From the NCBI GenBank assembly GCA_030629775.1, contig DAOVOJ010000001.1, positions 1 to 37,481 on the forward strand: DNA of 37,481 bases, in the 5' to 3' direction. Position 1 is the stretch's first letter; the number at the start of each line of letters is the position of its first letter. Under the pieces are notes generated by a model, which was given only the letters and a program-made list of their open reading frames with translations, ran no database searches and was not told the DNA's origin. Source of the DNA: Candidatus Moraniibacteriota bacterium (lineage in GTDB: Bacteria; Patescibacteriota; Minisyncoccia; JAHIHE01; DAOVOJ01). Below, piece by piece: positions 6,750 to 25,927 of this stretch. Both the position numbers and the translations under genes were made by a program.

Positions 6750-6753
6750 AATG

Positions 6754-12458: not shown

Positions 12459-12473
12459 ATGAAAATTGGATAA

Positions 12474-12510
12474 ATCCCCTCCTTACCAAGGAGGGGGCAG
12501 GGGGAGGTTT
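12474..12510 (+). repeat. G-box copy in the rny/ymdB spacer
   Basis: atcccctccttaccaaggagggggcagggggaggttt. It forms a 9-bp GC hairpin followed by G-tracts. Confidence 0.75.
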
Positions 12511-12531
12511 AAAAAACAAGTCTAAAGTCTT

Positions 12532-13356
12532 ATGAAAATATTATTCTTTGGCGATGTTGTCGGGCGGGCGGCGAGGAGGTCTTTGTCTAAAATAATCGCC
12601 GAGTGCAAAAAAGAGGATCCTGAAATTTCTTTGGTGATCGCCAATGGCGAGAACGCCGCCCATGGAATGGGAATTACCAAGGGAGTTTTGGAGGAGATCT
12701 TGAGCGCCGGAGTTGATCTGGTAACTTTGGGTGATCACACCTGGGATATTAAAGGAGCGGTTGATTTGCTGGAAAAAAAAGATATTCCCGTGATCTGTCC
12801 GGCTAATTTTCCCAAATTAACTCTTGATAAGGGTTGGCGAATTTTGAGCGTAGGAAAAGAAAAAATCTTAGTGATAAATTTGATCGGGCGGGTGTTTATG
12901 AAGATTTACCCCGACTGTCCTTTTCGCGCAGTTGACGAGATTTTAAAAAAGTGCGAAAATAAGGCTAAGGTGATCATTGTTGATTTTCACGGCGAAGCGA
13001 CCAGCGAGAAAAACGCGTTGGGACATTATCTGGCCGGTAGAGTTTCGGCGGTATTAGGGACGCACACCCATATTCAAACAGCCGACGAAAGGATTATGAA
13101 AAACGGAACCGCCTATATTTCCGATGTTGGAATGGTTGGTCCCCTTGATTCAATTATCGGCGGCGACAAGGATGTTATTTTAGAGCAGTCTCTTACGCAG
13201 GTTCCTTTCAAGTATCAGCTTAGTCCCGATGAAAATGTTTTGGCCAACGCGGTTGTTTTGGACATTGACGAAAAAACAGGAAAAGCGAGAGGGATTAAGA
13301 GAGTGAGTAAAGTATTGAAGAGCGATGGTTGTATAAAAAAAGAAACAGGAAAGTAA
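12532..13356 (+). CDS. ymdB: YmdB-family metallophosphoesterase (2',3'-cyclic-nucleotide phosphodiesterase)
   Basis: MKILFFGDVVGR, ANGENAAHG, DFHGEATSEK and GTHTHIQTAD motifs. The position after rny matches the arrangement in Bacillus. Confidence 0.88.
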   Translation: MKILFFGDVVGRAARRSLSKIIAECKKEDPEISLVIANGENAAHGMGITKGVLEEILSAGVDLVTLGDHTWDIKGAVDLLEKKDIPVICPANFPKLTLDKGWRILSVGKEKILVINLIGRVFMKIYPDCPFRAVDEILKKCENKAKVIIVDFHGEATSEKNALGHYLAGRVSAVLGTHTHIQTADERIMKNGTAYISDVGMVGPLDSIIGGDKDVILEQSLTQVPFKYQLSPDENVLANAVVLDIDEKTGKARGIKRVSKVLKSDGCIKKETGK

Positions 13357-13460
13357 TTTTGAATTTGGTGCTTTTGGGCTAATGATTAGAATTTAAATTT
13401 AGACAATTTAGTTATTTCGCAATACAAATATAATAAGTAATAAAGAAAGGGGGTGAGACA

Positions 13461-13736
13461 ATGACAAAAGATGAATTAATAGAAGCAGTAGCCGCTCAGG
13501 CGGGAACTTCTAAAAAAGAAACTGAGACTATTGTTAACGCGGTTCTTGACACGATTACAAAAACTTTAACCGAGGGCGGAAAGATCGCTTTAACCGGTTT
13601 CGGAACTTTTTCAGTCAGTGACAGGGCGGCGCGAACAGGAGTTAATCCTCAGCACCCTGAACAAAAGATTCAAATTCCAGCGATGACGGTGCCTAAATTT
13701 AAAGCTGGTAAGAGCTTAAAAGACGCTGTTAAATAA
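13461..13736 (+). CDS. hup: HU-family DNA-binding protein
   Basis: 91 aa with GFGTFSVSDRAARTGVNPQ and the arm motif. GGGGGTGA-type SD upstream. Confidence 0.93.
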   Translation: MTKDELIEAVAAQAGTSKKETETIVNAVLDTITKTLTEGGKIALTGFGTFSVSDRAARTGVNPQHPEQKIQIPAMTVPKFKAGKSLKDAVK

Positions 13737-13770
13737 TTCCAGCAAACTTGGTACCAAAATTGCTGGCGCG

Positions 13771-13803
13771 AAAACCTCTATTATTTTTATGGAGGTTTTT
13801 GCT
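13771..13803 (+). terminator. Rho-independent terminator after hup
   Basis: aaaacctc-tattatttttat-ggaggtttt followed by a T-run. Confidence 0.65.
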
Positions 13804-13963
13804 TCATGTATGAGTGTATGAGTTGACCTTTTTTGTTTTTGCTGTATTATTGAATTATTGTATTACTCTATTGTTATATTGTTAAGTTTGCTATTTTCTA
13901 GTTTCTAATGGCCTATTTTTCAGAGATTGAATTTTAAGAAGCTAAAAAGCTAAGAAGCTAAAA

Positions 13964-14036
13964 CGGGGCGTAGCGTAACGGCTAACGCACTTGGTTTGGG
14001 ACCAAGGGACTCCGGGTTCGAATCCCGGCGCCCCGA
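13964..14036 (+). tRNA. tRNA-Pro (anticodon TGG)
   Basis: Hand-folded cloverleaf: acceptor cggggcg/cgccccg, D stem gcgt/acgc, anticodon stem cttgg/ccaag with loop ttTGGga, and T arm ccggg-ttcgaat-cccgg. CCA is not encoded. Confidence 0.9.
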
Positions 14037-14080
14037 CAAGACGAAATTTGACGGATTTTATCAAGTTTTAGAGTAATCTT

Positions 14081-14869
14081 ATGGAAAAACTTTTTATTAA
14101 AAACCGTAAAAGAGAAAATATATCTGTTCTTATTGAGAGAAGTGAGAACCAAAAAGGACTTGCTTTTGTTATGCACGGACTTGGCGGCTTCAAAGAGCAA
14201 GACCATATTACCACTTTCGCTAATGCGTTCAAAGAAAAAGGATTTACCGTTATTCGTTTTGATACCACAAACACGCTTGGTGAAAGTGGCGGGAAATATG
14301 AAGATGCTACAATCACGAATTATTACGAGGATTTAGAGGATGTCATCAAGTGGGCGCAAGAGCAAGAATGGTATCGGGAGCCGTTTGTGCTTTCGGGGCA
14401 TAGTTTGGGTGGAATTTGTACAATTCTTTATACCGAAAAATACCCCATAAAAGTTTTAGCTCTTGCACCCATTTCGTCGGTAGTTTCTGGGCAAATGACA
14501 CTTGACGCAGAACCAAAAGAAAGGGTTGCGGAGTGGGACAAAACGGGTTTGAAAATTAGTCCGAGCGAATCTAAGCCTGGCGTAATAAAAAAACTGAATT
14601 GGCGACAATTTGTTGATGATAGTTTGAAATACAATGTTCTAGAAAATACTGGCAAGCTCACAATGCCGGCTTTACTCATAACCGGAAGCGAAGATCATGG
14701 AACTCCTTATGAACATCAAAAAATATTCTATGATAAATTGTCTGGTCCAAAGGAAATTCATAAGATAAACGGAGCATCACATACTTTTCGCGCTAAAGAA
14801 CATTTGGCAGAAATTAAAAATATCTTTTTGAAATGGATTGACAAATATTTACTGCAAGTAAATAAGTGA
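14081..14869 (+). CDS. Alpha/beta-fold hydrolase
   Basis: 262 aa with HG oxyanion motif (FVMHGLGG), nucleophile elbow GHSLGG, a late Asp (GSEDHG) and His (GASHTF). Confidence 0.8.
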   Translation: MEKLFIKNRKRENISVLIERSENQKGLAFVMHGLGGFKEQDHITTFANAFKEKGFTVIRFDTTNTLGESGGKYEDATITNYYEDLEDVIKWAQEQEWYREPFVLSGHSLGGICTILYTEKYPIKVLALAPISSVVSGQMTLDAEPKERVAEWDKTGLKISPSESKPGVIKKLNWRQFVDDSLKYNVLENTGKLTMPALLITGSEDHGTPYEHQKIFYDKLSGPKEIHKINGASHTFRAKEHLAEIKNIFLKWIDKYLLQVNK

Positions 14870-15059
14870 GATAATAAGTGAGAGCGGCGTACCAAATTTG
14901 TTGGTATGAACTTCAGTAACCGTTCAAAAAAGGTTCACGTTTTATTTGGCAATTGCGACAAAAAATTAATCTTTTAACTCAGATGTTCTTTGTGATGTTG
15001 TACTTTGGAATAGAATTTAAGTGTATTAGAGTTCATTTTAAATTCAAGCTAACAATTTT

Positions 15060-15159
15060 CTTACCCTCTCCAACCTCCCCTCAACCCTCTCCCAATTTTC
15101 CAAAATCCCCACCCAAACCACCGGGAAATTGTTCCCAACTATATCCCGGCGCCCCGACA
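15060..15159 (+). repeat. Direct repeat A (island junction, ends in the tRNA-Pro 3' fragment)
   Basis: About 90 of 100 positions are identical to 23299..23398 by hand alignment. The last 17 nt equal the tRNA-Pro 3' end. Confidence 0.85.
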
Positions 15160-15204
15160 CTTTAGAAAAAGCAACTCTGCGAGGGGTTGTTTTTGTTTTG
15201 TTGC

Positions 15205-15233
15205 TTGAATTATTAGTGGTTTAATGATAACAT
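15205..15233 (+). promoter_or_regulatory. Candidate promoter of the methylase-nuclease-methylase operon
   Basis: TTGAAT-N17-TAACAT, about 50 nt upstream of 15285. Confidence 0.3.
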
Positions 15234-15284
15234 AAGAGCAAGGAAAAGGGGAGGGGATTTTGATTAGAAAATAAAAGACTAACT

Positions 15285-16067
15285 ATGCCAATTTTTAATG
15301 ATATTGATTTAAAAAATTGGAAAGAATCAGAAATTTGGACTGATAGTTTGTGGATGATTTCAGAACGGGATAAGTCAGGAAAACACAGCAATTTTTATCA
15401 CGGAAATTTTGTTCCACAAATTCCACGCCAGTTTATCTTGCGATACACAAAAAAGAACGATATAGTGCTTGATCCATTTGTTGGAAACGGAACAACCGCC
15501 TATGAAGCAGAGAGCTTAAAAAGGAATTTTATCGGGATTGATATTCAAAAAAGTTTAATAAATAAAATCAAAAAGAATTTAGATCAAAAGAATAATCTTT
15601 TTGAATTATTGACTGGTGATAGCGCAAATAAAAATACTTTTGAGCAAGTAAAAGAAATTTTTAAAAAACATAAAAAGAAAAATATTCAGCTGGCAATTTT
15701 ACATCCGCCGTATGCGGATATAGTAAAATTTAGCAGTCATAAAGAAGATTTGTCTAACGCAAAATCATTAAAAGAATTTTTAAGCAAATTTTCACAAGTT
15801 TTGGAAAATGCTATTTCAATTTTAGAAAGAAGTAGATATTTAATTATTGTTATTGGTGATAAATATACAAAAGGTCAATGGATTCCTTTAGGATTTTATT
15901 GTATGAATGAAGCGCAAAAATTGGGATTAACTTTGAAAAGTGTTATTATAAAAAATATGGAGGGAAATCGCGCTAAACAAAACAAAGAAGGTATTTGGCG
16001 ATACCGCGCGCTTTCAAGCGATTATTATATTTTTAAACATGAATATATTTTAGTTTTTAAAAATTGA
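15285..16067 (+). CDS. SAM-dependent DNA amino-methyltransferase (N6-A or N4-C)
   Basis: Motif I VLDPFVGNGTTAYEAESLKRNFIGIDI lies upstream of motif IV ILHPPYADI. A motif X-like FVPQIPRQFI precedes motif I. Confidence 0.75.
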   Translation: MPIFNDIDLKNWKESEIWTDSLWMISERDKSGKHSNFYHGNFVPQIPRQFILRYTKKNDIVLDPFVGNGTTAYEAESLKRNFIGIDIQKSLINKIKKNLDQKNNLFELLTGDSANKNTFEQVKEIFKKHKKKNIQLAILHPPYADIVKFSSHKEDLSNAKSLKEFLSKFSQVLENAISILERSRYLIIVIGDKYTKGQWIPLGFYCMNEAQKLGLTLKSVIIKNMEGNRAKQNKEGIWRYRALSSDYYIFKHEYILVFKN

Positions 16068-16071
16068 AATT

Positions 16072-17241
16072 ATGACAACACATGTATTTATAGTTGATTC
16101 AAAAACATTTAAACTTCACTTAGAGTATCTTTTTGCTGGAACGGGAGCGAAAGATAACCATATTGATTTTAATAACTCGGAAACGACTACTTTACATCAC
16201 ACAAAAGAGAATATATTAGCAGGTATGATTGCTGATGCAAACAGAATAAGACGAGGCGACCAAATAATTTTTTATTTACAGCAAGATTTTTCTAAAAAAA
16301 TATTTGAGGGTAAATTTTTCGGCATATTTACGGCTAAAAGTGATTGGTCTTTTTTAGATAATAATGATCATAATCAATATTTAGGCAATGAGCTTGGAAA
16401 ATCTTTAACATTCAGAACTATTATTGAACCATATAAAGTTTATTCCGAAGGTGTGACAGAATGGGAAGCGCTAGATGAAATAAAGAATATACAATCCCCG
16501 AATCAAATGCTTTGGAGTTTAATTTATCGTAAATTAAAAGGCAATCGTGGAAATACCATGATAACTATTTATGAGTCTGAAAGGTTGTGTCAATTAATTA
16601 GGGATAAAAATTCTAGACAAGAGATTGATGTTAATAATCGTAAGCTGACATTTGATCAAGATAGTCAAAAAATAATTTTAACTTCAGAAAATATAAATGA
16701 TTATATTGGAAGAAGGGAAGAAATGGATTTACTTCCGAGATTAATGGCTAAATATCAGGAGAATAAGTCATTTGAAACTCATCTACAGGCTTATATTGTA
16801 AGAAATATAGGGAAAGGAGTAAACGAATCGCTTGATAATTATGTTTTGGGACAAAATCTTGAGTTTGAATGGCTTGGAAATGAAGTGTCTTGCGGTGTTG
16901 GCATGCAAAGAATCGATATAATGATTTCAACAAATATAAACGATCAAAGAATTTTAATACCAGTAGAATTAAAATCAGTTGAAGCTGATGTAGTTAATGT
17001 AAAACAGATACAAAGATATATTGATTGGATAGAGCAATATTATACCCCTAACAGGCAAAGTGACATACAGCCAGTTTTGATTTCTAAAAAAATAAACAGT
17101 AAGAGCACGGAAAAATACCAAAGAATTATTGCCACTTTTAACGATTTCAATACTCAAAATTCTAGAAGGTGTAGTAATTTAAAATATATTGAGTATCATT
17201 TAGAAGATGATAACTTGATTTTTGAAGAAATAAATTATTGA
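16072..17241 (+). CDS. Putative restriction endonuclease: N-terminal PUA/EVE-like region plus C-terminal PD-(D/E)xK core
   Basis: It is tightly packed between two methylases (4-nt and 2-nt gaps). The C-terminal GMQRIDIMIS...ILIPVELKS fits D...ExK. The N-terminal HVFIVDSKTF...RRGDQIIFY...GKFFGIFTAKS resembles PUA-like reader folds, but weakly. Confidence 0.5.
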   Translation: MTTHVFIVDSKTFKLHLEYLFAGTGAKDNHIDFNNSETTTLHHTKENILAGMIADANRIRRGDQIIFYLQQDFSKKIFEGKFFGIFTAKSDWSFLDNNDHNQYLGNELGKSLTFRTIIEPYKVYSEGVTEWEALDEIKNIQSPNQMLWSLIYRKLKGNRGNTMITIYESERLCQLIRDKNSRQEIDVNNRKLTFDQDSQKIILTSENINDYIGRREEMDLLPRLMAKYQENKSFETHLQAYIVRNIGKGVNESLDNYVLGQNLEFEWLGNEVSCGVGMQRIDIMISTNINDQRILIPVELKSVEADVVNVKQIQRYIDWIEQYYTPNRQSDIQPVLISKKINSKSTEKYQRIIATFNDFNTQNSRRCSNLKYIEYHLEDDNLIFEEINY

Positions 17242-17243
17242 TT

Positions 17244-18323
17244 ATGAACTATATCGGTTCTAAATTATCACTTCTTGAATTTTTAGAAAATTCAATTAAT
17301 AAAGTAGTTAACAAAGACTGCCATGTTTTTTGTGATTTATTTGCTGGGACTGGAATTGTTGGGAATTATTTTAAAAAGAAAGGGTATAAAATAATCGCTA
17401 ATGATATTCAATATTATAGCTATGTTTTAAATAAACATTATATTGAAAATCACAAAGAATTAATGTTCTCAAAGTTAATAAGAGAATTATCTGAATTAAA
17501 AAAAGTAAAAACAGAAAACAGAAAAGATTTTGTTTGTGATTATTTGGAAAATTTAAAAGAAGTTAAAGGATTTGTTTATAAAAATTATTGTTTAGGCGGA
17601 ACGGAAGATAGAGAAATACAAAGGCAATATTTTTCAGACGCAAACGGAATGCGATGTGATGCGATAAGAAAGAAGATTGAAGAATGGAGAAAAGAGAAAT
17701 TGATAAATAATAATGAATATTATTTTTTGCTAACAAGTTTAATTGAATCAGTTGATAAATGCGCGAATACTGCTTCTGTTTATGGTGCATTTTTGAAAAA
17801 ATTAAAAGAATCCGCGCAAAAAAGTTTTGTTTTAAAACCAGCTGAATTAATTATTAATGATCAAGAACATAAAGTTTATAATGAAGACATAAATGTTTTA
17901 ACAAAAAAAATAAAAGGGGATATTCTATATTTAGATCCTCCATATAATCACAGGCAATATGCGTCAAATTATCACATACTTGAAACAATCGCAAAATATG
18001 ATAATCCCAAAATTCATGGCAAAACTGGATTAAGAGATTATGAAAATCAAAAGTCATTATATTGTTCTCGCGTGGAAGCAAAAAATGCTTTTAAAGATTT
18101 AATTTCAAAGGCAAAAGTAAAATATATCTTTTTAAGTTATAACAACGAAGGAATAATGTCTTTAGAAGATATAAAAGAAATTATGAGTTTGCGCGGGGAG
18201 TATGGACATTTTACAAAAGATTATAACAGATTTAAGGCAGATAAAAATAGAAATTATAAAGCAGACAGAACAGTTGAATATTTACATTATGTTGTTTGTG
18301 ATTCTGCAAAAATTGGTTTATAG
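17244..18323 (+). CDS. Dam-family (D12 class) N6-adenine DNA methyltransferase
   Basis: N-terminal MNYIGSKLSLL, motif I FCDLFAGTGIVG and motif IV LYLDPPYN. The ATG at 17244 is preferred over the TTG at 17238. Confidence 0.85.
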   Translation: MNYIGSKLSLLEFLENSINKVVNKDCHVFCDLFAGTGIVGNYFKKKGYKIIANDIQYYSYVLNKHYIENHKELMFSKLIRELSELKKVKTENRKDFVCDYLENLKEVKGFVYKNYCLGGTEDREIQRQYFSDANGMRCDAIRKKIEEWRKEKLINNNEYYFLLTSLIESVDKCANTASVYGAFLKKLKESAQKSFVLKPAELIINDQEHKVYNEDINVLTKKIKGDILYLDPPYNHRQYASNYHILETIAKYDNPKIHGKTGLRDYENQKSLYCSRVEAKNAFKDLISKAKVKYIFLSYNNEGIMSLEDIKEIMSLRGEYGHFTKDYNRFKADKNRNYKADRTVEYLHYVVCDSAKIGL

Positions 18324-18344
18324 CTCTCTCAAAATTTACATAAA

Positions 18345-18369
18345 AAGAGGAATAAGATCCTCTTTTTTT
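18345..18369 (+). terminator. Rho-independent terminator after the methylase
   Basis: aagagga-ataaga-tcctctt followed by T5. Confidence 0.6.
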
Positions 18370-18422
18370 GTACTTGTTTTTACTGTTCTATGTATGTTTT
18401 GTATTTTATGATGTAAAAATCC

Positions 18423-18450
18423 TTGACATATATTTTATTTATGCTAATCT
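18423..18450 (+). promoter_or_regulatory. Candidate promoter giving a leaderless lexA-like mRNA
   Basis: TTGACA-N16-TAATCT. The A of the ATG (18457) lies 7 nt after the -10, and there is no SD. Confidence 0.4.
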
Positions 18451-18456
18451 ATAAAT

Positions 18457-19137
18457 ATGGAGATTTCAAAGCTTACTAAAAAACAACGAAAAGTATTCAA
18501 TTTAATAGAGTCGTATTTTAATAAATATGGCTGTTCTCCTACAATCACTGAATTAAAAGAAGCATTAGCCGTCAATTCTTTACGAACTGTTGTTCAATAT
18601 CTTGAAGCACTAGAGAAAAAAGGATTTATTTATCGCAAACATAATCAAAAAAGAGGCATAGAGCTTGCAAACATAGGAACGACAACGGATTTTGACACGA
18701 TATTATTGCCAGTCGTTGCGTCTGTTGGATGCGATGATGCAAGCATATTCGCGGATGAAAAAATAGATGAATATATAACCATAGATAAAAATTTTATTCC
18801 AGGTGGGAAAAGTATTAAGGATATGGTGGTGGTTAAAGCAATAGGCGCGAGTATGCAAGAAGCGGGAATCAGTTCAGGCGATTATATATTAGTAGAAAAA
18901 ATTAATACTGCACAGGCGCAAGAAAATGATCGCGTGGTAGCAATAATAGATGACAATATTGTTATAAAGAAGCTTCATTTTGCAGAAAATGCCATAATTT
19001 TAAATCCCGAATCAAAAAACAAACACTACAAACCGATAATAATGAAAAGAGATTTTTATATTCCAGGGCGGGTAGTGGATGTTATTAAAATGAAACCTGA
19101 TTTAGAAATTAAATATATACCAATAGAAAATAATTAA
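18457..19137 (+). CDS. LexA-like repressor (winged-helix DNA-binding domain plus S24 autopeptidase)
   Basis: N-terminal CSPTITELKEALAVNSLRTVVQYLEALEKKGFIYR is LexA_DNA_bind-like. Also present are a VGCDD cleavage-site region, Ser in GASM and Lys in VIKKL. Confidence 0.8.
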   Translation: MEISKLTKKQRKVFNLIESYFNKYGCSPTITELKEALAVNSLRTVVQYLEALEKKGFIYRKHNQKRGIELANIGTTTDFDTILLPVVASVGCDDASIFADEKIDEYITIDKNFIPGGKSIKDMVVVKAIGASMQEAGISSGDYILVEKINTAQAQENDRVVAIIDDNIVIKKLHFAENAIILNPESKNKHYKPIIMKRDFYIPGRVVDVIKMKPDLEIKYIPIENN

Positions 19138-19154
19138 CTAATCTAATTTAAAAC

Positions 19155-19406
19155 ATGGAAAATAAAGAAAGAGCCGTTGAGGCTTTAGAAAAAATTGAAA
19201 AGGTAATTGACGAAATAAGAGATATGTTCCCTGATATCAAAAAAGAGCAGATTAAAATTTTTGTTAAGAATAAGAAATATAATGATCCTGTTAAAATATT
19301 AAAAAAAGTTGATAGGATAATTATAAATTATAACGAAAGCAACGCTGAAAGAAAATTGGAAAGTCTATTAGGATTTTTAGGTATCACTGTTAAAAAAGAA
19401 AAATAA
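19155..19406 (+). CDS. Hypothetical 83-aa helical protein
   Basis: The ORF starts 17 nt after the lexA-like stop and is co-oriented. No family recognised and no SD. Confidence 0.45.
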   Translation: MENKERAVEALEKIEKVIDEIRDMFPDIKKEQIKIFVKNKKYNDPVKILKKVDRIIINYNESNAERKLESLLGFLGITVKKEK

Positions 19407-19464
19407 AAAACTAAATTGGAAAGTTTTAAGGGTTTTAGAGCATGAAATAATAAAAAATTTTGAT

Positions 19465-19490
19465 AAAACAATTAATAGAATAATTGTTTT
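19465..19490. promoter_or_regulatory. Perfect 10-bp palindrome upstream of the 1190-aa gene
   Basis: aaaacaatta-atagaa-taattgtttt. It could be an operator or a weak terminator. Confidence 0.3.
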
Positions 19491-19535
19491 CTTAGAAAGT
19501 AAAAATAATTAAACAATATTTAAGTATTTAAAATA

Positions 19536-22500
19536 ATGGATAATATAAGCCAAATCATTTCACCAGACCAATTTTCTAAACTTTGTAAGCATCTTTTTGC
19601 TGCTGAATTTGATGATTTTCAAACTATTGATGATAGCGGTGGCGATAAAGGAAATGATGGGTATTCAGAAAAGCAAAAAACACTTTTTCAACTTTACTGT
19701 CCCAAAAAACCAAACAAAGCAACTGATTCAAAATGTAAATTAAAAATAAAAGAGGATTTGGATAAAGCAAAAGAACTTGTTGATTCTGGAAAATATATTA
19801 TTGAAAAATGGATTTTTGTTACCCCCGCGGAACTACGAGAGGATGTTCATACTTATATTAGAACAGAGGCTGCGGAGAGAGGGTTTATTGGTATAGCGTG
19901 GGCAAGTCCCAAGTTGACAGTATTTTTTACAAATCATTCCAATTTACGAAGTCAATTTCCAGATTTAATTCAGCCAGACATTGAACAGAAAATAGATTTA
20001 TTAGATTTAAAAATTACAGGGCATACGGAATCAGTCAACGATGTCAAGAGGAAATATCGAACGAAGTTGGAACAAAATTATCAACGGCGTATTGACGAAG
20101 CAAGGATAAAAATAGATGATGAAAAAAACGAAGCAGCAAAAAAGGAATATGAAACAATTTTAAGAGATTTAAATTCGGAATCAGAAAAAATAGACCCGCA
20201 TCTTTTTTTTCGAGTTCATAATAATTTAGGTGCTTGTGAATTAAATCTCGGAAACACAAGAGAAGCAGCGAAATTTTTTGAAAAAGCTTATTCGTTTAAA
20301 CCAGACCAGTCAATAGCAATTGCGAATTATGCTTTATCAAAATCCTTAAAAGATAATCCAAAAGAAGGGCTGGTAATAATTGAAGATCTGTTAAAAAAAC
20401 ATCCTACTGATAATCACGCAATTTCTGTTAAGGCAAATATTCTGTACACTTTAGAAAGATATGAAGAGTTGATACCATTCCTGAAAGAAAAGGGCAAAAC
20501 AGCGTTGTCGTGCTGGTATGAGGGATTTGAAGCAATGTCCAAGGATGACTACGATACCGCAATTTTCTGCTTTGAGAAAGTTATTCATCTTGAACCAAAA
20601 AATATTAAAGCGTACTTTTTAGCTGCTCAAAATGTCATGATTGGGTCAAGAGAATTTGTTAAAAATAATGCTTTCCTGCCGGATAAAATACCTTCCGCTA
20701 TAAAAGAAAAATTCACGAAAGCTATTTCTTGGTTAAAAAGGGCAGTTGAACTTTTACAAGACAAGGAACAGAACAAGGAACAGAAAGCTGATTTAGAGAT
20801 GGCATATACTAATTTATCTGGCTGCTTTGTTGCTCTTGGTTTATTTGATGAGGCAATTGAATTTGCGTTAAAAGCTATCTCTATTGATCCCATATCTCCT
20901 ACCCCTTTTCTTAATAAGGGGATAGCTCAACTAAAACTTGGTAAGCATAAAGAAGCAATAAGTAGTTTTAAAAAATATAAAGATTTAGGAGGAGACGAAT
21001 TTAGCGTGGATAGACACAGTGCTTTTTGTTCTTTGAGAACTGGTGATTTAGATACCGCGGAAAAAATAATTATTCCCTTACTAGAACAAGAAAAAGATTT
21101 AGATTTGGATGTTGCAGAACTTGGAGTGGAGTTATATTCAAAAAGATTGGACAATGACAAGTCAGAAGCATTATTAAAAAAACTGGAAGAAAACTTTTCT
21201 GATAATTCTCAAGCGTTACGAATTCGTGCCGCACATCTTCAGAGATTGGGAATGTCGGGCGTGGAATTATTACTTCAGAAGGCATTGGAAAGCTCAAAAT
21301 CAGAATCGGAAAAAATGTTGACTGAAATGGATTTAGCTGATTTCTTATATAGCACAAAAGATTATTCCCGTGCTGCAGAAATATATCGGAAATATATCAA
21401 CATTGAAGAAACAACTACGGGAACTCTTAAATATGCTGAATGTCTATATAATTCAGGACAGTATGGAAATCTCTTAAAATGGATAGATACATTAGGCACA
21501 TCTGTGCGTAAACATTCTTTAATTCAACAGGTAGAAGCGTATTCGAATCTTTACTTGGGTAATCTTGAAAAAGCATCATCTTCTTTTAGAAAACTTTTTG
21601 AAAAAACCTCAGACAATCTTAAATACCTCGTATTTTATGGAATGTGTAGATTTAGACTGGGCAAAGAATATGAGGCAAAAAAAGCTTATGACGCTGTAAG
21701 AAATAGAGTAACTGAAACTGACGATGTTGTGATATTATCGGGCGGTTATGAATTTATCGGGGAACGGAAAATTGCATTGGAGCTTACTTATAAAGCTTTA
21801 GAAAACGATTCTAATAATCCAAAAGCTCATCTTGCTTACATTTTTACATTTTTACGTAGGGAACAGGCGGGAGGAAAAGATTTTGAAGATAAATATGTAA
21901 AACTATTTCAAAAATCAATTGGCGAATTTAGTAAAAGGTTTCCCGAAGAAAAAGCGCTACAAACTTTCGAAGTAAAAGATAAAGGCATCGGTCCCATGTT
22001 AAAAATGGCTGATCAGTTAGCAGAGTCAACAGAAAATGCAACTGGGCTTTATAGAGAATCCAAGGTTCCGCTTGCTGTTATCCCAAAGTTTACAAACAGA
22101 AAACCATTTGATGTCTGGGCTGCCTTTACTCAAATGCCAGATGTTGGGATAAAAATTTTATTTGGCTCGCCAGACGAGCTTTCAACAGAAGCTTTAACAA
22201 TTAAAGAGTATTGCGACAATTCTATTGTTGTTGATATTTATCCATTATTTCTTCTGACTCACTTTAATCAGCTTGAATTATTATCAAAACTATTCAAGAA
22301 AATTTATGTGCATCAAAGTGTAATTGATGAATTAACAGAATCAATCGACGAGCATAGAATTTCGGTGCGCAAAGGACAAACAATTTTTGGAAAAATTGAT
22401 GGTCAGCACAAGTTAATTGATATTTCTCCAGAACAAGTACAAAAAACAGTTGCTTCGTTAGAAAAAATTAGAGATTTTTTAAGCAAGGATAAATCTTGCG

Positions 22501-23108
22501 AAATTCACGGATTATCCAAAGAAAGGTCGGGAGATGAACGCAATTTAATTAACGCTCTTCATGAAACAACAAAAAATAGCATTTTTCTTGCTGAAGATCT
22601 TAATTTGCCCATTTATTGTGATGACCGCATATTGCGAGTTATTTTAAAAAATGAACACAGAGTAAAATCTTTCTCTACTCAATCTTTAATCAATTTAGCA
22701 CAAATAAAAGGGGTAATATCGCTTGATAAGCGATTTGAGTTACAGAAAGAAATGATAGGACTTAAATATGAATTTCTTCCAATAGATGCGACTTTTATAT
22801 ATTATTTTTTAAAAAAGGCAAGCTATAAGATAGAGAAAATACAAGATATAATCTTTACACTTGTGCAAAAAGAAACAAGTATTCAATCTTTGGAAGTGGT
22901 ACTTGCTGATCTTTTCTTTCTACTTTTAATTGAACGGTTAATAGACAACAAAACAAAACTTAAAATATTTAGGAGCATATTATCGCAAGCTTCGTTAAAC
23001 CACGATTTAGATAATATAGAAGAAGGAATTTTTATGAATCTTCAAAAAAAAGTAAAACCTGAAAAGCATAAACAATTAAAAGATATGCTTAAAATTATTT
23101 TTTCGTGA
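19536..23108 (+). CDS. 1190-aa protein: Mrr-like nuclease-type N-terminus, long TPR array, PIN-like C-terminal domain
   Basis: The N-terminus FSKLCKHLFAAEF..IDDSGGDKGNDGY..LFQLYCPKK resembles the Mrr-cat pattern. Residues ~230-800 contain many 34-aa TPR-like units (e.g. AAKFFEKAYSFKPD, AIFCFEKVIHLEPKN, AIEFALKAISIDP). The C-terminus has IVVDIYPLF, VIDELTE and AEDLNLPIYCDDRIL in PIN-like acidic spacing. No P-loop seen. Confidence 0.6.
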   Translation: MDNISQIISPDQFSKLCKHLFAAEFDDFQTIDDSGGDKGNDGYSEKQKTLFQLYCPKKPNKATDSKCKLKIKEDLDKAKELVDSGKYIIEKWIFVTPAELREDVHTYIRTEAAERGFIGIAWASPKLTVFFTNHSNLRSQFPDLIQPDIEQKIDLLDLKITGHTESVNDVKRKYRTKLEQNYQRRIDEARIKIDDEKNEAAKKEYETILRDLNSESEKIDPHLFFRVHNNLGACELNLGNTREAAKFFEKAYSFKPDQSIAIANYALSKSLKDNPKEGLVIIEDLLKKHPTDNHAISVKANILYTLERYEELIPFLKEKGKTALSCWYEGFEAMSKDDYDTAIFCFEKVIHLEPKNIKAYFLAAQNVMIGSREFVKNNAFLPDKIPSAIKEKFTKAISWLKRAVELLQDKEQNKEQKADLEMAYTNLSGCFVALGLFDEAIEFALKAISIDPISPTPFLNKGIAQLKLGKHKEAISSFKKYKDLGGDEFSVDRHSAFCSLRTGDLDTAEKIIIPLLEQEKDLDLDVAELGVELYSKRLDNDKSEALLKKLEENFSDNSQALRIRAAHLQRLGMSGVELLLQKALESSKSESEKMLTEMDLADFLYSTKDYSRAAEIYRKYINIEETTTGTLKYAECLYNSGQYGNLLKWIDTLGTSVRKHSLIQQVEAYSNLYLGNLEKASSSFRKLFEKTSDNLKYLVFYGMCRFRLGKEYEAKKAYDAVRNRVTETDDVVILSGGYEFIGERKIALELTYKALENDSNNPKAHLAYIFTFLRREQAGGKDFEDKYVKLFQKSIGEFSKRFPEEKALQTFEVKDKGIGPMLKMADQLAESTENATGLYRESKVPLAVIPKFTNRKPFDVWAAFTQMPDVGIKILFGSPDELSTEALTIKEYCDNSIVVDIYPLFLLTHFNQLELLSKLFKKIYVHQSVIDELTESIDEHRISVRKGQTIFGKIDGQHKLIDISPEQVQKTVASLEKIRDFLSKDKSCEIHGLSKERSGDERNLINALHETTKNSIFLAEDLNLPIYCDDRILRVILKNEHRVKSFSTQSLINLAQIKGVISLDKRFELQKEMIGLKYEFLPIDATFIYYFLKKASYKIEKIQDIIFTLVQKETSIQSLEVVLADLFFLLLIERLIDNKTKLKIFRSILSQASLNHDLDNIEEGIFMNLQKKVKPEKHKQLKDMLKIIFS

Positions 23109-23298
23109 TTTACATAGTTTGCATAGTTAATAGAAAAAATAGAAACTGTTCACTCAAAAAAAATTTGGACTTTTGTAAAAAACGAGACAAAATCTCATTT
23201 TGCACTTATATAGAACTGTGTAATTTCGATTCTGTTTAATCTGTTTTTTATATGTGCAAGAACCATAATATTATTTCTTTTCCTTGGTTAATAAGCTG

Positions 23299-23398
23299 CT
23301 TATCCTCTCCAACTTTCCCTCAACTCTCTCCCAATTCTCCAAAATCCCCACCCAAACCATCGGGAAATTGTTCCCAACTGTATCCTGTTGCCCCGACA
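23299..23398 (+). repeat. Direct repeat B (distal island junction with a degenerate tRNA-Pro 3' fragment)
   Basis: Aligns with 15060..15159. It ends atcctgttgccccgaca. Confidence 0.85.
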
Positions 23399-23412
23399 GA
23401 TTGAATTACGAA

Positions 23413-23448
23413 GAAGTCTGGCTTTCTGTAGGAAGCCAGGCTTCTTTT
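23413..23448 (+). terminator. Strong terminator hairpin directly after the distal repeat
   Basis: gaagtctggctt-tctgtagg-aagccaggcttc (12 bp, one G.U) followed by TTTT. No + strand gene ends nearby, so it may be the displaced tRNA-Pro terminator. Confidence 0.55.
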
Positions 23449-23658
23449 GATTCGTGCTTGTTTGATAATTTATGAATAAATTCGTGTATATTTTGGATTT
23501 TTGTGGAAAAACCAATGGATTGGTCATTATATTATAATTGTGATACAATTGTAATATAACACTGAGAAATACTGCTGGAGCTTAAATTAAATTTAAGTTG
23601 AGGGTTGTATGGTTAGTGATCATTTATTATCCAGAATGTGCTGGGCTAATACAAGAAT

Positions 23659-24642
23659 ATGAATTACACGGATAGAATTTATGGAGAGGTTGAGATTATG
23701 GAGCCGGTGGTTTTGGAGCTGATAGAAAGTCCGACGCTTCAAAGGTTGAAAGAGATAGATCAAGCCGGTTATTTTGAACCGTATAATCCGGGCACCGCTC
23801 ACAGCCGTTTTGAGCACTCTTTGGGAGTGTTTTGTCTTTTGAAAAAGTATGGCGCTTCTCTTGAAGAGCAAATCGCGGGACTGATTCATGATGTTTCGCA
23901 CTCCGCTTTTTCTCATTGCGTTGATTATGTTTTAGATGTTGGTTCCGAAAAAGAGCAAAATCACCAAGATAATACTTTTAGAAAATTTGTGGAAAAGTCG
24001 GAAATACCCGCGATACTTGAAAAATATAATTTAGATCCGGATTATATCTTAAACGATAAGAACTTTCCACTGGAAGAAAAAGAATTGCCTGATTTGTGCG
24101 CGGACAGAATTGACTATTCTTTAAGAGCAGCGGTTATTTTTAGAGAGATAAACATTGATAATTTAAATTATTTTCTTAACAGTTTAGTCACAAAAAATAA
24201 GCAGTGGCTATTTAAAGACTTTGAAAGCGCGAAAAAATACGCTGAATTATTTTTTAAGTTAAATAAAAAATATTATTCGGACATATATTCCGCGGTGATG
24301 TTCAGAACTGTAGGCGATTACTTGAGATATGCTTTGCAGAAAAAGTATATTTCCGAGAGTGATCTATATACGACGGATAAAATAGTGTTGTCAAAAGTTG
24401 GAAATTATCTGGAAAAAGATAAGAAGTTAAATTTTCTTTTTGATAGAATGAACAATAAAATTAAATTCAAAAACGACCCGGAGAATTACGACGCTCAGGT
24501 GTTTTGTAAATCAAGAGCCGTGGATCCGCTTTGCGATCACAACGGCGAAGTAAAGCGAGTTTCCGAGGTAGACGCAAGTTGGAAAGAAATATTAAAAAAC
24601 GAATTAAAACCAAAAGAGTATTTTATAAAGTTTGATAAATAA
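23659..24642 (+). CDS. HD-domain phosphohydrolase (COG1078 / SAMHD1-like group)
   Basis: Contains PTLQRLKEIDQAGY, HSRFEHSLGV, GLIHDVSHSAFSH and CADRIDYSLR. Confidence 0.8.
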   Translation: MNYTDRIYGEVEIMEPVVLELIESPTLQRLKEIDQAGYFEPYNPGTAHSRFEHSLGVFCLLKKYGASLEEQIAGLIHDVSHSAFSHCVDYVLDVGSEKEQNHQDNTFRKFVEKSEIPAILEKYNLDPDYILNDKNFPLEEKELPDLCADRIDYSLRAAVIFREINIDNLNYFLNSLVTKNKQWLFKDFESAKKYAELFFKLNKKYYSDIYSAVMFRTVGDYLRYALQKKYISESDLYTTDKIVLSKVGNYLEKDKKLNFLFDRMNNKIKFKNDPENYDAQVFCKSRAVDPLCDHNGEVKRVSEVDASWKEILKNELKPKEYFIKFDK

Positions 24643-24655
24643 TTAATTTACAAAA

Positions 24656-24862
24656 ATGAAAAACGAAATTACCAAAGACACAATTTTGGCTAAAATTTTG
24701 GACAATCCTAAAAATGTAGAAATTTTGGAAAAGCATAATTTTCCTTGCCTGGGCTGTCCCTGCGTTCAGTATGAAATGAACGATTTGAAACTCGGACAGA
24801 TTTGCGGGATGTATCAGATTGATTTGGAGAAATTGTTAGAGGAATTAAATAAAGCTTCTTAA
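24656..24862 (+). CDS. DUF1858-type small redox/disulfide domain protein
   Basis: 68 aa with FPCLGCPC and a C-terminal IDLEKLLEELN, as in hybrid-cluster-associated DUF1858 domains. Confidence 0.6.
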   Translation: MKNEITKDTILAKILDNPKNVEILEKHNFPCLGCPCVQYEMNDLKLGQICGMYQIDLEKLLEELNKAS

Positions 24863-24937
24863 ATTATAAAACACAGGTGTTATACTGTAAAAAATTACAA
24901 ATCCAAAATCACTTTGAATTACGGAATACATTAAAAT

Positions 24938-25047
24938 TGTCATCCTGAACTTGTTTCAGGATCTGTCATGTGCTACATTATGCTTTTATATTTATCTTAA
25001 AGCTAAATATAACAGACGACAGATCCTGAAACAAGTTCAGGATGACA
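24938..25047. repeat. TGTCAT hairpin element with perfect 30-bp terminal inverted repeats
   Basis: tgtcatcctgaacttgtttcaggatctgtc ... gacagatcctgaaacaagttcaggatgaca. Each arm holds its own small palindrome. Confidence 0.9.
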
Positions 25048-25095
25048 GTTAAAGTTTATTTTGTAATTTTGAATTTGGTGCTTTTAGAATATTTC

Positions 25096-25707: not shown

Positions 25708-25730
25708 TGAAGTGGGAATTACATGTTCAC

Positions 25731-25888: not shown

Positions 25889-25927
25889 AGTTAAAACGTG
25901 TAATTCACAATTCCATATTCTGTTATT

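Follow-up and report, generated by a model that had tools for sequence, protein, structure and literature searches.

The window considered here is a stretch of 37,481 nucleotides from a Candidatus Moraniibacteriota contig (DAOVOJ010000001.1), in which an intact tRNA-Pro(TGG) gene, recognised by ARAGORN and Rfam, is followed by two units that each end in a repeat of about 110 nt tipped by a 17-nt copy of the tRNA 3' end. Related loci are referred to by L numbers. The features of the region are as follows:

13964..14037, + strand: tRNA-Pro(TGG), the array anchor (attB-like site; ARAGORN; Rfam tRNA 68.6 bits)
14022..14038, + strand: core copy 1, ATCCCGGCGCCCCGACA, covering the end of the T-loop, the 3' T-stem, the 3' acceptor strand, the discriminator and 1 nt more
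14039..15159, + strand: unit A, a cassette of 1.12 kb that comprises cargo and a terminal repeat of its own, between perfect 17-bp direct repeats
14081..14869, + strand: alpha/beta hydrolase of 262 aa, the unit A cargo (Pfam Hydrolase_4 1.6e-18, Abhydrolase_1 3.4e-13)
15050..15159, + strand: repeat 1, with a C-rich arm of ~93 nt, in which YCCAA-type motifs recur in a phase of ~11 nt, then core copy 2 (15143-15159)
15160..23398, + strand: unit B, an AT-rich defence cassette of 8.24 kb (30.4% GC, deviant tetranucleotides)
15167..15194, + strand: terminator-like hairpin at the left end of unit B (-12.6 kcal/mol)
15285..16067, + strand: N6/N4 DNA methyltransferase, type II (Pfam N6_N4_Mtase 1.2e-28; PADLOC MTase_II 4e-95)
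16072..17241, + strand: putative restriction endonuclease with a weakly matched PD-(D/E)XK NucS_C-like C-terminus (Pfam NucS_C 6.4e-5; NCBIfam NucS 3.6e-5)
17238..18323, + strand: D12-class (Dam-like) adenine methyltransferase (Pfam MethyltransfD12 1.3e-51; PADLOC MTase_II 1e-115)
18457..19137, + strand: LexA repressor inside the cassette (NCBIfam TIGR00498 lexA 129 bits, cut-off 111; Pfam LexA_DNA_bind and Peptidase_S24)
19155..19406, + strand: 83-aa protein, constant companion of the TPR-PIN gene (conserved in L031-L033 and L039-L044)
19536..23108, + strand: TPR and PIN protein of 1190 aa, of the PIN-TPR-GreABC conflict-system type (Pfam PF20698 5.9e-18, plus TPR families)
23287..23398, + strand: repeat 2, ending in core copy 3 (23382-23398)
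23402..23454, + strand: strong terminator-like hairpin past the last core (-30.9 kcal/mol, z = -7.2)
23659..24642, + strand: HD-domain protein (Pfam HD 2e-6; 35% GC)
24656..24862, + strand: DUF1858 gene, which opens the conserved right flank (72% identical to the L024 gene)

The sequence-only reading of this DNA had placed a 17-mer at the 3' end of the tRNA-Pro gene and recovered it twice downstream, and this stands: ATCCCGGCGCCCCGACA recurs exactly (17/17) at 15143-15159, and core copy 3, ATCCTGTTGCCCCGACA at 23382-23398, departs from it by 3 mismatches; three matches of the 17-mer were reached in 0 of 100 shuffles. The 17-mer does span the tRNA 3' end, but the end of the tRNA gene, which had been read off the segment 14022..14038, lies at 14037 according to ARAGORN, so the 17-mer extends 1 nt beyond the gene. 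As in tDNA islands, the 3' part of the tRNA is regenerated and the displaced 3' fragment lies as a direct repeat at the far end. The proposal that each distal 17-mer terminates a direct repeat of ~100 nt with ~90% identity is borne out by the 90% identity over 100 nt between 15060-15159 and 23299-23398; over 110 nt (15050-15159 against 23289-23398) the value is 87%. The interval between the repeats, earlier put at ~8.1 kb and here at 8.24 kb, is indeed more AT-rich than its surroundings, with a GC content of 30.4% in 15160-23398, the left flank having 41.2% and the right one 38.0%. Its tetranucleotide distance to the flanks is 0.30-0.42, as against 0.14-0.20 outside, and its composition can thus be told from that of the flanks by both measures. 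The cargo of unit B looks foreign by its 30% GC and deviant tetranucleotide usage; unit A (14038-15159), with 37.8% GC, has no compositional deviation. TGTCAT-type repeats are absent between 11826 and 25732, and the sole G-box-like match inside (15250) is GGAGGGG, a Shine-Dalgarno-like sequence belonging to the first methylase gene, in agreement with the earlier remark that both repeat types are missing between the direct repeats.

As regards a type II restriction-modification system in unit B, the two methyltransferases are firmly assigned, and the gene between them encodes a weakly matched endonuclease candidate of 389 aa (NucS_C/PD-(D/E)XK) with no PDB relative by sequence. The fusion of a TPR array to a PF20698 PIN domain that defines the PIN-TPR-GreABC type is present, at 65.9 bits against a cut-off of 27.8, and the N-terminus of this protein is LmuA-like (PADLOC, 7.6e-12). 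Its 83-aa companion matches no family in Pfam or NCBIfam, and a GreAB-C partner was not recognised there. The TPR-PIN protein has 51 homologues at <=1e-30, of which the minority that are taxon-labelled belong to Paceibacteria/Pacebacteria or Minisyncoccota. The unit A hydrolase yielded only sub-threshold matches to named esterases and lactonases.

At the right end, the strong terminator noted earlier is real (-30.9 kcal/mol), but it is no orphan: terminator-like hairpins also lie 3' of most members of the repeat family and of the genuine tRNA-Pro in L016 and L004. The HD gene beyond it has no terminal repeat and is absent between tRNA-Pro and DUF1858 in L024; it may be a third inserted unit that lacks such a repeat or an ancestral gene lost in L024, and the inserted region may extend to 24655 so as to take it in. 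In L024 the DUF1858 orthologue starts 24 nt past tRNA-Pro, in the order HU - tRNA-Pro - DUF1858 with the whole array absent, an ancestral-like empty site.

The repeat family and its arrays

The two window repeats are members of a wider family, of which 27 copies were counted across more than 10 Paceibacteria MAG contigs (NCBI, ENA, JGI, Logan); these copies delimit cassettes of 0.57-9 kb and share a single orientation within each array. The anatomy of these cassettes is uniform: a variable cargo of 0.4-9 kb, often comprising defence genes or small proteins without known function, is followed by the ~93-nt C-rich arm, with about seven YCCAA-type motifs at ~11 bp phasing, and by the 17-nt core. 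The next unit begins immediately past ...GACA, usually with a terminator-like hairpin, and about 26 of some 30 cargo genes are co-oriented with the repeat, the other four being inverted. Within the core, GCCCCGACA is nearly invariant across the family and positions 5-8 are variable; in most cassettes the core forms the palindrome TGTCG-CCC-CGACA. Decay as the source of the mismatches in the third core was rejected, as ATCCTGT[CT]GCCCCGACA is the most frequent core variant in the whole family. A 20-nt palindrome has invaded three repeat copies, and other small dispersed repeats abound in the window and in related genomes.

Because the repeat matches no Rfam family, has no conserved fold or covariation (consensus fold -5 kcal/mol, covariation term -0.36), shows AA dinucleotides phased at lags 11, 21-22 and 32, and combines variable core positions 5-8 with a nearly invariant GCCCCGACA, it probably functions as DNA and not as RNA. 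Folds of single copies have z scores of -0.6 to -2.0.

Pairwise identity among the repeats averages 83% and rises to 98% inside L016. Repeat 2 is most similar, at 92.9%, to the copy that follows the TPR-PIN orthologue of L039, and shares 85.7% with repeat 1; each repeat thus travels together with the cargo upstream of it. Both window repeats resemble copies from other genomes more than they resemble each other, and, more generally, repeat subtypes are common to different genomes rather than homogenised within arrays. The TPR-PIN cargo has kept its repeat in different genomes (window, L031, L039), and four different sequences stand straight past CCCCGACA of this cassette (window, L039, L032 and L034).

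Although multi-copy, the repeat is confined to arrays, which speaks against a genome-wide dispersed element unrelated to tRNA genes, and the remaining 27 kb of the window holds zero further copies. Wherever the start of an array lies on the contig, it is tRNA-Pro(TGG), in 3/3 cases: the window, L016 (7 repeats in 7.4 kb, at spacings of 569-1627 bp) and L039/L040 (5 repeats). A further array, L013, has 5 repeats. The genes upstream of the array tRNA differ, being HU (HU/YmdB) in the window and AMMECR1/PriA in L039. Judged by sequence comparison, the window pair is a small example, with two units, of the cassette arrays that this repeat family forms at tRNA-Pro(TGG) in Paceibacteria (CPR).

Sequence comparison between close relatives reveals cassettes gained, lost and re-ordered with breakpoints exactly at the core, and presence/absence polymorphism with a precise empty site (L039/L040, L003, L024). 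The window segment 18037-23398 is 95% identical to L039, and the homology stops exactly at the core. L003 is without unit A, and L039/L040 preserve its empty site, with the tRNA core directly joined to a homologue of window 15158-15205; the hairpin at 15167..15194 is homologous to the sequence directly past tRNA-Pro in L039. In L012, unit A lies behind a different repeat variant with the core ATCCTGTTG; the left end of the unit adjoins the tRNA core in the window and this variant core in L012, at exactly the same nucleotide in both cases. Two samples contain unit A as a contig of its own with breaks close to or at the cores, on both sides in L011 and only at the upstream core in L012; no circular junction of a cassette was seen, and the L012 junction is not that of a unit A circle. 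In L004, another cassette of 0.7 kb occupies the unit A junction and is followed by the start of a repeat; the HU-tRNA flank is 97-98% identical in L003 and L004. All of these data are metagenome assemblies, in which such repeats can cause breaks and, in principle, chimeras; the same junctions were seen again in independent samples.

These variant arrangements and empty sites, at odds with one fixed gene order, bear out the earlier claim of at least two independently acquired units in a composite at tRNA-Pro. The order of arrival, in contrast, is the reverse of what had been supposed, as the hydrolase segment had been taken for the older or decayed one. The hydrolase ORF is intact, the unit adjoins the tRNA between perfect 17/17 cores, L003 is without it and L039/L040 retain the pre-insertion junction, which together indicate that unit A is a discrete insertion and the most recent of the units. 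The window, L003 and L031 do not agree in the left end of unit B, and events besides core-to-core exchange therefore also act; module swaps are seen at non-core breakpoints too, near window 15190-15196 and 18037.

Routes of cassette gain and exchange

In a tDNA island an integrase is expected inside the element, usually beside the att site, and here the window and the related arrays that were checked show none. The earlier statement that the window lacks an integrase is confirmed by the Pfam scan of its ORFs: no Phage_integrase, resolvase or recombinase occurs among those of the island and flanks, nor any recombinase in precomputed Pfam tables for the rest of the 37-kb window bar its outermost few kb. 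The same was found for the precomputed Pfam gene tables around L039/L040, for the scanned ORFs of L013, L014, L016 and L017, and, as regards integrases, for roughly 10 kb around the two further arrays with a known start (L016, L039/L040). An autonomous element combining the repeat with an integrase was not encountered in three viral-contig scans, INPHARED phages or PLSDB plasmids. As a recombinase was not found anywhere searched, the enzymatic step in what follows is purely inferred.

We propose, with about even confidence, that 14039-23398 is a two-unit tRNA-Pro(TGG) array of integrase-less cassettes added by site-specific recombination, with the recombinase encoded elsewhere, and then shuffled. 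Each unit would have arrived as a small circle with an attP-like site (arm, core and hairpin), which a site-specific recombinase would join to the tRNA 3' end or to a resident core. The sublocation at the T-loop/3' end and the phased arm motifs suggest a tyrosine recombinase, and its gene would lie elsewhere in the genome or on a helper element. Strand exchange would take place inside GCCCCGACA, which would leave the tRNA intact and let each cassette keep its own left-half core variant. The array would subsequently be reshuffled by homologous recombination between repeats and by module swapping within units. In the window, unit B would have been resident first and unit A would have entered later, between the tRNA and B.

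Core breakpoints would equally be expected from homologous recombination, because homology ends at the core. A rather unlikely alternative dispenses with a dedicated recombinase: the ~110-160-nt repeat (arm, core and hairpin) would be portable homology for RecA-dependent exchange, deletion and insertion of cassettes, natural transformation from related strains may supply the DNA, and one ancient integration at tRNA-Pro would have seeded the first repeat. The lack of an integrase in cis in the arrays checked fits this account, as do repeats that are long and similar enough (83% on average, 98% at most), the possibility of allelic replacement via the HU-tRNA flank shared with L003 and L004 together with any downstream repeat, and the module swaps away from the core. 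It has difficulty, however, with the left end of unit A, which is joined precisely to both tRNA and repeat even though these share just 9-17 nt of identity; with the perfect 17-bp direct repeats and the exact L039 empty site, a classical signature of site-specific integration; with subtypes that cross genomes instead of homogenising within arrays; and with the phased motifs and junction palindrome, which suggest recognition by a protein. Another account, which we hold to be improbable, makes the repeat itself the mobile or functional entity, as a MITE-like non-autonomous element or a transcription-insulating module (pseudo-tRNA end plus terminator) multiplied in a hypervariable region, the 'cassettes' being whatever sits between. 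The hairpins on most copies and past the real tRNA-Pro, the wealth of other small dispersed repeats and the invasion of three copies by the palindrome would suit it, but the single orientation per array, the tRNA-Pro at every known array start, the retention of the TPR-PIN cargo across genomes, the movement of unit A as a whole with its cargo, and the remaining 27 kb of the window without copies all speak against it. The option in the sequence-only reading of one insertion plus a duplicated junction would account for two ~110-nt direct repeats within one locus, but this local duplication has next to no chance of being correct and is already refuted: repeats 85.7% alike, one of them 92.9% identical to the L039 TPR-PIN copy, are each nearer to copies of other genomes than to their partner, the family runs to 27 copies on more than 10 contigs, and unit A has an empty site of its own.

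A further connection comes from a TIGR-Tas module that is itself a cassette in L039/L040/L041. The L039 protein at 17539-18753 matches NCBIfam TIGR_Tas_endo (8e-22, 78 bits, below the cut-off of 100), and a profile of its family matches PDB 9mty (7e-18) and TasH (1.6e-3). Beside it, at about 18764-19010, lies a TIGR array of stem-loops with the unit AAGACCA-N-[8]-TGTGAAAAACCA-N-[8]-TGTCTT; the pairing of a Nop-domain Tas with a dual-spacer guide array that marks TIGR-Tas systems is thus present in L039/L040/L041, and homologous loci also have arrays. We recognised no nuclease or recombinase domain in the L039 protein, the family matches being to Tas and IS110 C-terminal regions and weak zinc ribbons. 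It is conceivable, though very improbable in our judgement, that a TasA-like protein is directed by guide RNA to the invariant AATTGTTCCCAACT of the repeats and stabilises, silences or otherwise controls the array. Besides the Tas-family matches and the adjacent array, the spacer pair of unit 1 matches the best-conserved stretch of the repeat over 14 contiguous nt that run across the junction of the two spacers (directed shuffle P ~0.001), and this 14-mer is destroyed in 3/5 L039 repeats, including both that flank the Tas cassette, as against 1/22 elsewhere (Fisher ~0.013). In CPR bacteria, DNA binding and repression of transcription have been described for TasA and for catalytically dead TasR (bioRxiv 10.64898/2026.09.09.750476), which would suit such a role. 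Against it, the match is by mismatch count (14/18) no better than several chance matches in the same locus, the hypothesis was framed after inspecting the data, and no TIGR unit was found in the window. Moreover, Tas homologues of 84%, 51% and 46% identity lie among housekeeping genes with no repeats nearby, and the Tas module is therefore cargo, not array-specific.

Comparison with known systems

Sedentary chromosomal integrons, for example that of Vibrio cholerae with its repeats, carry conserved attC sites. The Paceibacteria arrays are like them in their one direction, in small, mostly single-gene, co-oriented cassettes with one site of ~110-130 nt at the 3' end (L016, L013, L039), in a fixed anchor site, in many genes without known function, and in cassette content that differs between close strains. 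However, the array head is tRNA-Pro, with no intI, attI or Pc, and the repeat is C-rich on one strand, with no attC-like imperfect palindrome and no fold; the tRNA anchor, the terminator-like hairpins that start the cassettes and some inverted genes set them further apart. The layout thus resembles that of an integron, yet the arrays do not qualify as integrons. Modules that depend on Xer include the IMEXs and the pdif modules of Acinetobacter plasmids. These too are integrase-less gene modules with short bounding sites, and are moved by a host recombinase encoded elsewhere, but the Paceibacteria sites are not dif-like, lack the 11-6-11 XerC/XerD architecture, are direct and not alternately inverted, and include the tRNA 3' end and a long phased arm.

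Tandem tDNA islands, of the Islander type or the ssrA-specific type of Dehalococcoides (PMC4383910, PMC3146451), share with our arrays the integration at a 3' end with regeneration of the gene, a displaced 3' fragment at each distal end, accessory or defence cargo of deviant composition, and presence/absence among strains; head-to-tail accumulation of such elements accounts for the repetition of the 3' fragment. In contrast to those islands, which normally have an integrase each and span 5-100 kb, units of the window type have none and are mostly 0.6-2.3 kb with 1-2 genes, and all have in common a conserved ~93-nt non-coding arm beside the tRNA fragment. CIMEs and accretion at the att sites of Streptococcus ICEs and IMEs (PMC5704250; ICEberg 2.0, PMC6323972) offer another parallel, in att-flanked, tandem elements without recombination or transfer genes, served by an integrase in trans and growing by accretion; the window units are likewise att-flanked and devoid of such genes. 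For CIMEs, however, the helper ICE and its integrase are known and the att sites common, whereas no helper was found for the Paceibacteria arrays in the viral, INPHARED and PLSDB scans; CIME arrays have 2-3 members, and the arrays described here up to seven or more mini-cassettes in a CPR host with a reduced genome.

We tentatively advance a wider proposal, which is possible but on balance doubtful: Paceibacteria may possess a dedicated cassette platform that is analogous to the integron yet mechanistically distinct, in which cassettes reduced to cargo, an arm of 93 nt with phased iterons and a 17-nt tRNA-Pro core would be captured serially at the 3' end of tRNA-Pro(TGG) by an undescribed recombinase acting in trans, and which a TIGR-TasA guide RNA would address, in one lineage or more, through the repeat's invariant 14-mer. 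Such a platform would be where these reduced genomes chiefly keep their exchangeable defence and accessory genes.

The tRNA-Pro locus of the window and its two units

The window carries gene cassettes stacked at the 3' end of a tRNA-Pro(TGG) gene, between blocks of housekeeping genes.

Features of the tRNA-Pro locus (window coordinates)
Left flank: housekeeping genes for ATP synthase, RNase Y, YmdB and HU
13964-14037: tRNA-Pro(TGG), intact anchor of the array
14039-15159, unit A: alpha/beta hydrolase, the sole gene of the unit; closed by repeat 1 (15050-15159)
15160-23398, unit B: N6/N4 methyltransferase; 389-aa protein with a weakly PD-(D/E)XK, NucS_C-like C-terminus; Dam-like D12 methyltransferase; LexA (18457-19137; TIGR00498, 129 bits, cut-off 111); 83-aa protein; TPR-PIN protein of 1190 aa (PF20698, PIN-TPR-GreABC type); closed by repeat 2 (23289-23398)
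23659-24642: HD-domain gene between the last repeat and DUF1858, 35% GC, without a terminal repeat
Right flank: housekeeping genes for HD, DUF1858, PCMT, YceG, ThyX, SHMT and a DEAD-box helicase

The sequence-only reading had proposed a composite island anchored at tRNA-Pro and devoid of an integrase; this finding is real and more general than was then supposed. The 17-mer ATCCCGGCGCCCCGACA at 14022-14038, comprising the final 16 nt of the tRNA and one base beyond, indeed recurs exactly at 15143-15159 and with three mismatches at 23382-23398, and three such matches were reached in 0 of 100 shuffles. As that reading also held, both distal copies (hereafter cores) terminate direct repeats of about 100 nt, with repeats 1 and 2 showing 87% identity over 110 nt and 90% over the final 100 nt. 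Computed composition bears out the AT-richness of the segment between them: 15160-23398 has 30.4% GC versus 41.2% and 38.0% in the left and right flanks, and its tetranucleotide distances of 0.30-0.42 are clearly deviant against 0.14-0.20 outside, while unit A (1.1 kb, 37.8% GC) is not deviant. The TGTCAT-type repeats reported as missing between the direct repeats are absent from 11826 to 25732, and the terminator placed after the last core is a strong hairpin (-30.9 kcal/mol, z = -7.2). Neither the ORFs scanned against Pfam, in the island and its flanks, nor precomputed gene tables covering most of the window yielded a recombinase domain, upholding the claim of a missing integrase; as there is none around the other arrays described below either, we reject an integrase acting in cis.

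The LexA gene, above the NCBI equivalog cut-off, sits in AT-rich unit B beside the TPR-PIN system, and likewise in related contigs (L039-L044). Its product may be the SOS repressor of the cell, carried on a mobile unit, or may serve the cassette as its own regulator. Dispersed palindromic REP-like repeats of the TGTCAT/GGAATGAC type (1255-1319, 2954-3036, 4515-4601, 6631-6751, 10494-10607, 24917-25068 and 25703-25906) and G-box repeats (at 298, 7297, 9193, 12477 and 35527) occupy the intergenic spaces of the housekeeping flanks, with none in the cassettes. Loci of more distant Paceibacteria (L029, L030, L036) contain Y1_Tnp (RAYT/IS200-like) genes. Between yceG and thyX, a GIY-YIG ORF (27040-27342 in the gene calls of the source contig; TTG start at 26995 in a mechanical ORF list) lies between inverted TGTCAT-type repeats of 33 nt (26954-26986 and 27369-27401, 91% complementary); the segment 26954-27401 looks like a small insertion of the homing-endonuclease type. 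Further along, a tRNA cluster (34999-35698), with tRNA-His on the minus strand and tRNA-Arg and tRNA-Lys on the plus strand, is enclosed by AT-rich inverted repeats 54-66 nt long (35074-35139 and 35633-35698, 71-73% complementary).

A repeat family that tags cassette arrays

A transition-tolerant pattern taken from the invariant centre of the repeat recovered five loci in four Paceibacterota/Parcubacteria MAGs, and a second pattern, used in a scan of JGI metagenomes, recovered only six short contigs, five of them holding full or near-full copies by profile HMM. With a profile HMM built from the copies, the family stands at 27 members on more than 10 contigs, uniformly oriented within each contig.

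Arrays on related contigs from other Paceibacteria
L016: tRNA-Pro(TGG), then seven repeats in 7.4 kb at spacings of 569-1627 bp
L013: five repeats
L039/L040: tRNA-Pro(TGG), then five repeats

Three arrays have their start on the contig (window, L016 and L039/L040), and tRNA-Pro(TGG) stands at the head of each even though the gene upstream of that tRNA differs: the window has HU there, L039 AMMECR1/PriA. Some 26 of 30 cargo genes run in the direction of the repeat. Cargo of the other arrays includes genes for an MFS transporter, an isochorismatase, a GNAT acetyltransferase, a phage gp30.3-like protein and an AriAB/PtuA-like ATPase with HerA, along with numerous small proteins without a family match.

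The first ~93 nt of the repeat, the arm, are C-rich on the array strand and bear YCCAA-type motifs (TCCAAC, CTCAAC, CCCAAT, TCCAAAAT, CCCAAAC, GGGAAAT, CCCAAC) phased every ~11 nt, with autocorrelation of A peaking at lags of 11, 21-22 and 32; conservation is highest at CCAAAAT...GGGAAATTGTTCCCAAC. Within the core, GCCCCGACA is nearly invariant and positions 5-8 are variable: the tRNA has CCGGC there, most cassettes TGTC, TGTT or TCGTC. The core of most cassettes forms the palindrome TGTCG-CCC-CGACA. A terminator-like hairpin, AAGAAAAATAACC...GGTTATTTTT, follows the core in most copies and also lies 3' of the genuine tRNA-Pro in L016 and L004. No Rfam family matched the repeat at gathering or E-value thresholds, single-sequence folds were no better than shuffles (z = -0.6 to -2.0), and RNAalifold on 19 copies gave -5 kcal/mol, without conserved structure. 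We therefore reject a known or structured RNA; the repeat most likely acts as DNA. Three copies (L015:6233-6363 on the minus strand, L016:4482-4612 and L016:7529-7648) contain, at the same or a nearby position, a perfect 20-nt palindrome, CCTGCCTGCCGGCAGGCAGG, which resembles a tiny REP- or MITE-like element that has invaded the repeat.

Gain, loss and exchange of units among relatives

Comparison with relatives, which the sequence-only reading had suggested as a way of finding empty sites, yielded them for both unit A and the whole array. In L039/L040, CACACTGGAAAAGGCAACTCCGCGAGGGGCTGTTTTT lies directly 3' of the tRNA core and is homologous to window 15158-15205, which follows core 2. This junction is the exact empty site of unit A, which is thus a discrete insertion between perfect 17-bp direct repeats; a site emptied of unit A would read ...GGTTCGAATCCCGGCGCCCCGACA|CTTTAGAAAAAGCAACTC. 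Unit A is also missing from L003 (GCA_030608425.1), which is 97.9% identical upstream; L004, 97.3% identical upstream, has another cassette of 0.7 kb at this junction, after which a repeat begins; and in L012 unit A is preceded by the core variant ATCCTGTTGCCCCGACA in place of the tRNA, with the junction nucleotide unchanged. For the whole array, a related species (L024; YmdB 83% identical) has the order HU - tRNA-Pro - DUF1858; its DUF1858 gene, 72% identical to window 24656-24862, is separated from the tRNA by 24 nt. A site empty of the whole array would read tRNA core | GATTGAATTACGAAG. The array is thus an insertion into conserved synteny, and the HD-domain gene, also missing at this L024 junction, may be part of it or may be ancestral. 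Relatives with YmdB at ~60% identity, in which HU is followed by a glycosyltransferase without tRNA-Pro or repeats, are uninformative on the site.

The TPR-PIN cassette is present in L031, L034 and L039 at 92-95% DNA identity. Its homology to the window stops exactly at 23398, and four different sequences begin straight after its CCCCGACA. Repeat 2 shares 92.9% identity with the copy that follows the TPR-PIN gene of L039 versus 85.7% with repeat 1, which indicates that each repeat belongs with its upstream cargo. As the two repeats of the window are not each other's nearest copies, the junction duplication offered earlier as an alternative is rejected. Nor is unit A the older or decayed unit: it adjoins the tRNA and has perfect cores, and hence is the newest.

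Events also occur inside units: the window, L031 and L039 differ in their restriction-modification module, and the breakpoints fall close to window positions 15190-15196 and 18037. This part has been swapped (window 15190-18323, L031:1968-6710, L039:5002-8787), whereas the part with LexA, the 83-aa protein and TPR-PIN remains 92-95% identical. In L031, which has no LexA, the methylases are separated by DndB, an HTH protein and two unknown proteins; L039 carries HNH_2 and a 468-aa protein together with a shorter D12 methylase. In a distant genome (GCA_040960315.1, L036:8276-14732), a TPR-PIN homologue of 61% identity lies among housekeeping genes, without repeats or tRNA-Pro, beside an N6_N4 methylase with an EcoO109I-like endonuclease, another restriction-modification pair, and a Y1_Tnp-like gene. 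Thus, the association of TPR-PIN with restriction-modification recurs outside the arrays.

Outside the window, the last cassette of the L039/L040/L041 arrays (L039:17338-19218) is a complete TIGR-Tas module, a system already known from CPR bacteria (PMC12045711; bioRxiv 10.64898/2026.09.09.750476).

The TIGR-Tas cassette (L039 coordinates)
17539-18753: Tas-family (TasA-like) protein, 404 aa; NCBIfam TIGR_Tas_endo 8e-22, family profile against PDB 9mty 7e-18
About 18764-19010: stem-loop TIGR guide array, units AAGACCA-N-[8 nt]-TGTGAAAAACCA-N-[8 nt]-TGTCTT

Tas homologues of 84%, 51% and 46% identity, also with TIGR arrays, lie among housekeeping genes with no repeats nearby, which marks the module as cargo; since, moreover, no nuclease or recombinase domain was recognised in the Nop-domain TasA-like protein, we reject it as the array recombinase. 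The two spacers of TIGR unit 1 match the best-conserved stretch of the repeat over 14 contiguous nt, AATTGTTCCCAACT (P about 0.001 in a directed contiguous-match shuffle test); in a mismatch-count scan this match is unexceptional and not significant. The 14-mer is destroyed in three of five L039 repeats versus one of 22 elsewhere (Fisher test, about 0.013). Targeting of the repeat by a tigRNA is hence put forward only as a lead from sequence; the match, if real, would join the few natural targets suggested so far for TIGR-Tas. The putative site is GGGAAATTGTTCCCAACT. In the repeats flanking the Tas cassette (L039:17227-17337 and 19108-19218), a 4-nt block change, CCCAAC to CGGGGC, removes the spacer match, and the altered form pairs with the core as a perfect 6-bp hairpin (CGGGGC...GCCCCG) mimicking the tRNA-Pro acceptor stem; in a third copy (15176-15268) the site is deleted.

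Mechanism, relation to known systems and significance

The cassettes are modular, each with a repeat linked to its upstream cargo and with nucleotide-precise junctions, and unit A has a classical empty site and target duplication with no recombinase gene in cis. We give about an even chance to a mechanism in which circle-borne cassettes recombine with the tRNA-Pro 3' end or a resident core through a recombinase encoded elsewhere. Cassettes would enter as circles bearing an attP-like site of arm, core and hairpin (the circle of unit A, if formed, being joined as ...CAACTATATCCCGGCGCCCCGACA|AGACGAAATTTGACGG), and the recombinase would be supplied from elsewhere rather than by the cassette. Strand exchange within GCCCCGACA by a tyrosine recombinase is favoured by the att site at the T-loop/3'-end sublocation of the tRNA gene, by the phased arm motifs, as in arm-type binding sites, and by the variable left and nearly invariant right half of the core. 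Such a half-core pattern would preserve an intact tRNA, with each cassette retaining its own left half-core.

The main rival, which we consider unlikely though still worth weighing, dispenses with a dedicated enzyme and has homologous recombination between repeats effect the exchange; it accounts for the missing integrase and for the mosaicism but fits poorly with new junctions at which identity to the tRNA spans no more than 9-17 nt. That the repeat is itself the mobile or functional entity seems improbable. A phage, satellite or plasmid carrier of the repeat is rejected on three IMG/VR pattern scans and on INPHARED and PLSDB, all of which returned no match. Control of the array by an RNA guide is more doubtful still, and a local duplication of the junction barely credible.

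The closest known kinds are tandem tDNA and ssrA islands (PMC4383910, PMC3146451) and integrase-less CIMEs accreting at att sites (PMC5704250, PMC6323972). The layout resembles that of an integron cassette array, yet the tRNA-Pro array departs from integrons on both defining features: its head lacks intI/attI and its sites are not attC-like foldable palindromes. Literature searches on Patescibacteria integrons and cassette arrays and on CPR tRNA-Pro hypervariable regions turned up no description of such arrays. In practice, the repeat flags defence-rich variable regions in CPR MAGs. It may also account for the short contigs around the locus; the longest contigs of the closest YmdB homologues are at most 4.4 kb, and some contigs end at cores.

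The CPR/Patescibacteria have tiny genomes, and the routes by which they acquire and exchange accessory and defence genes are poorly known. Here, a hotspot lies at a fixed address, the 3' end of tRNA-Pro(TGG), where small integrase-less units tagged by one repeat of ~110 nt are stacked, swapped and lost among near-identical strains. If a trans-acting recombinase drives the array, its compact and well-defined att site, a phased arm with a tRNA core, would be testable and possibly usable as a tool, and the array would represent a second, independently evolved cassette-capture architecture beside integrons.
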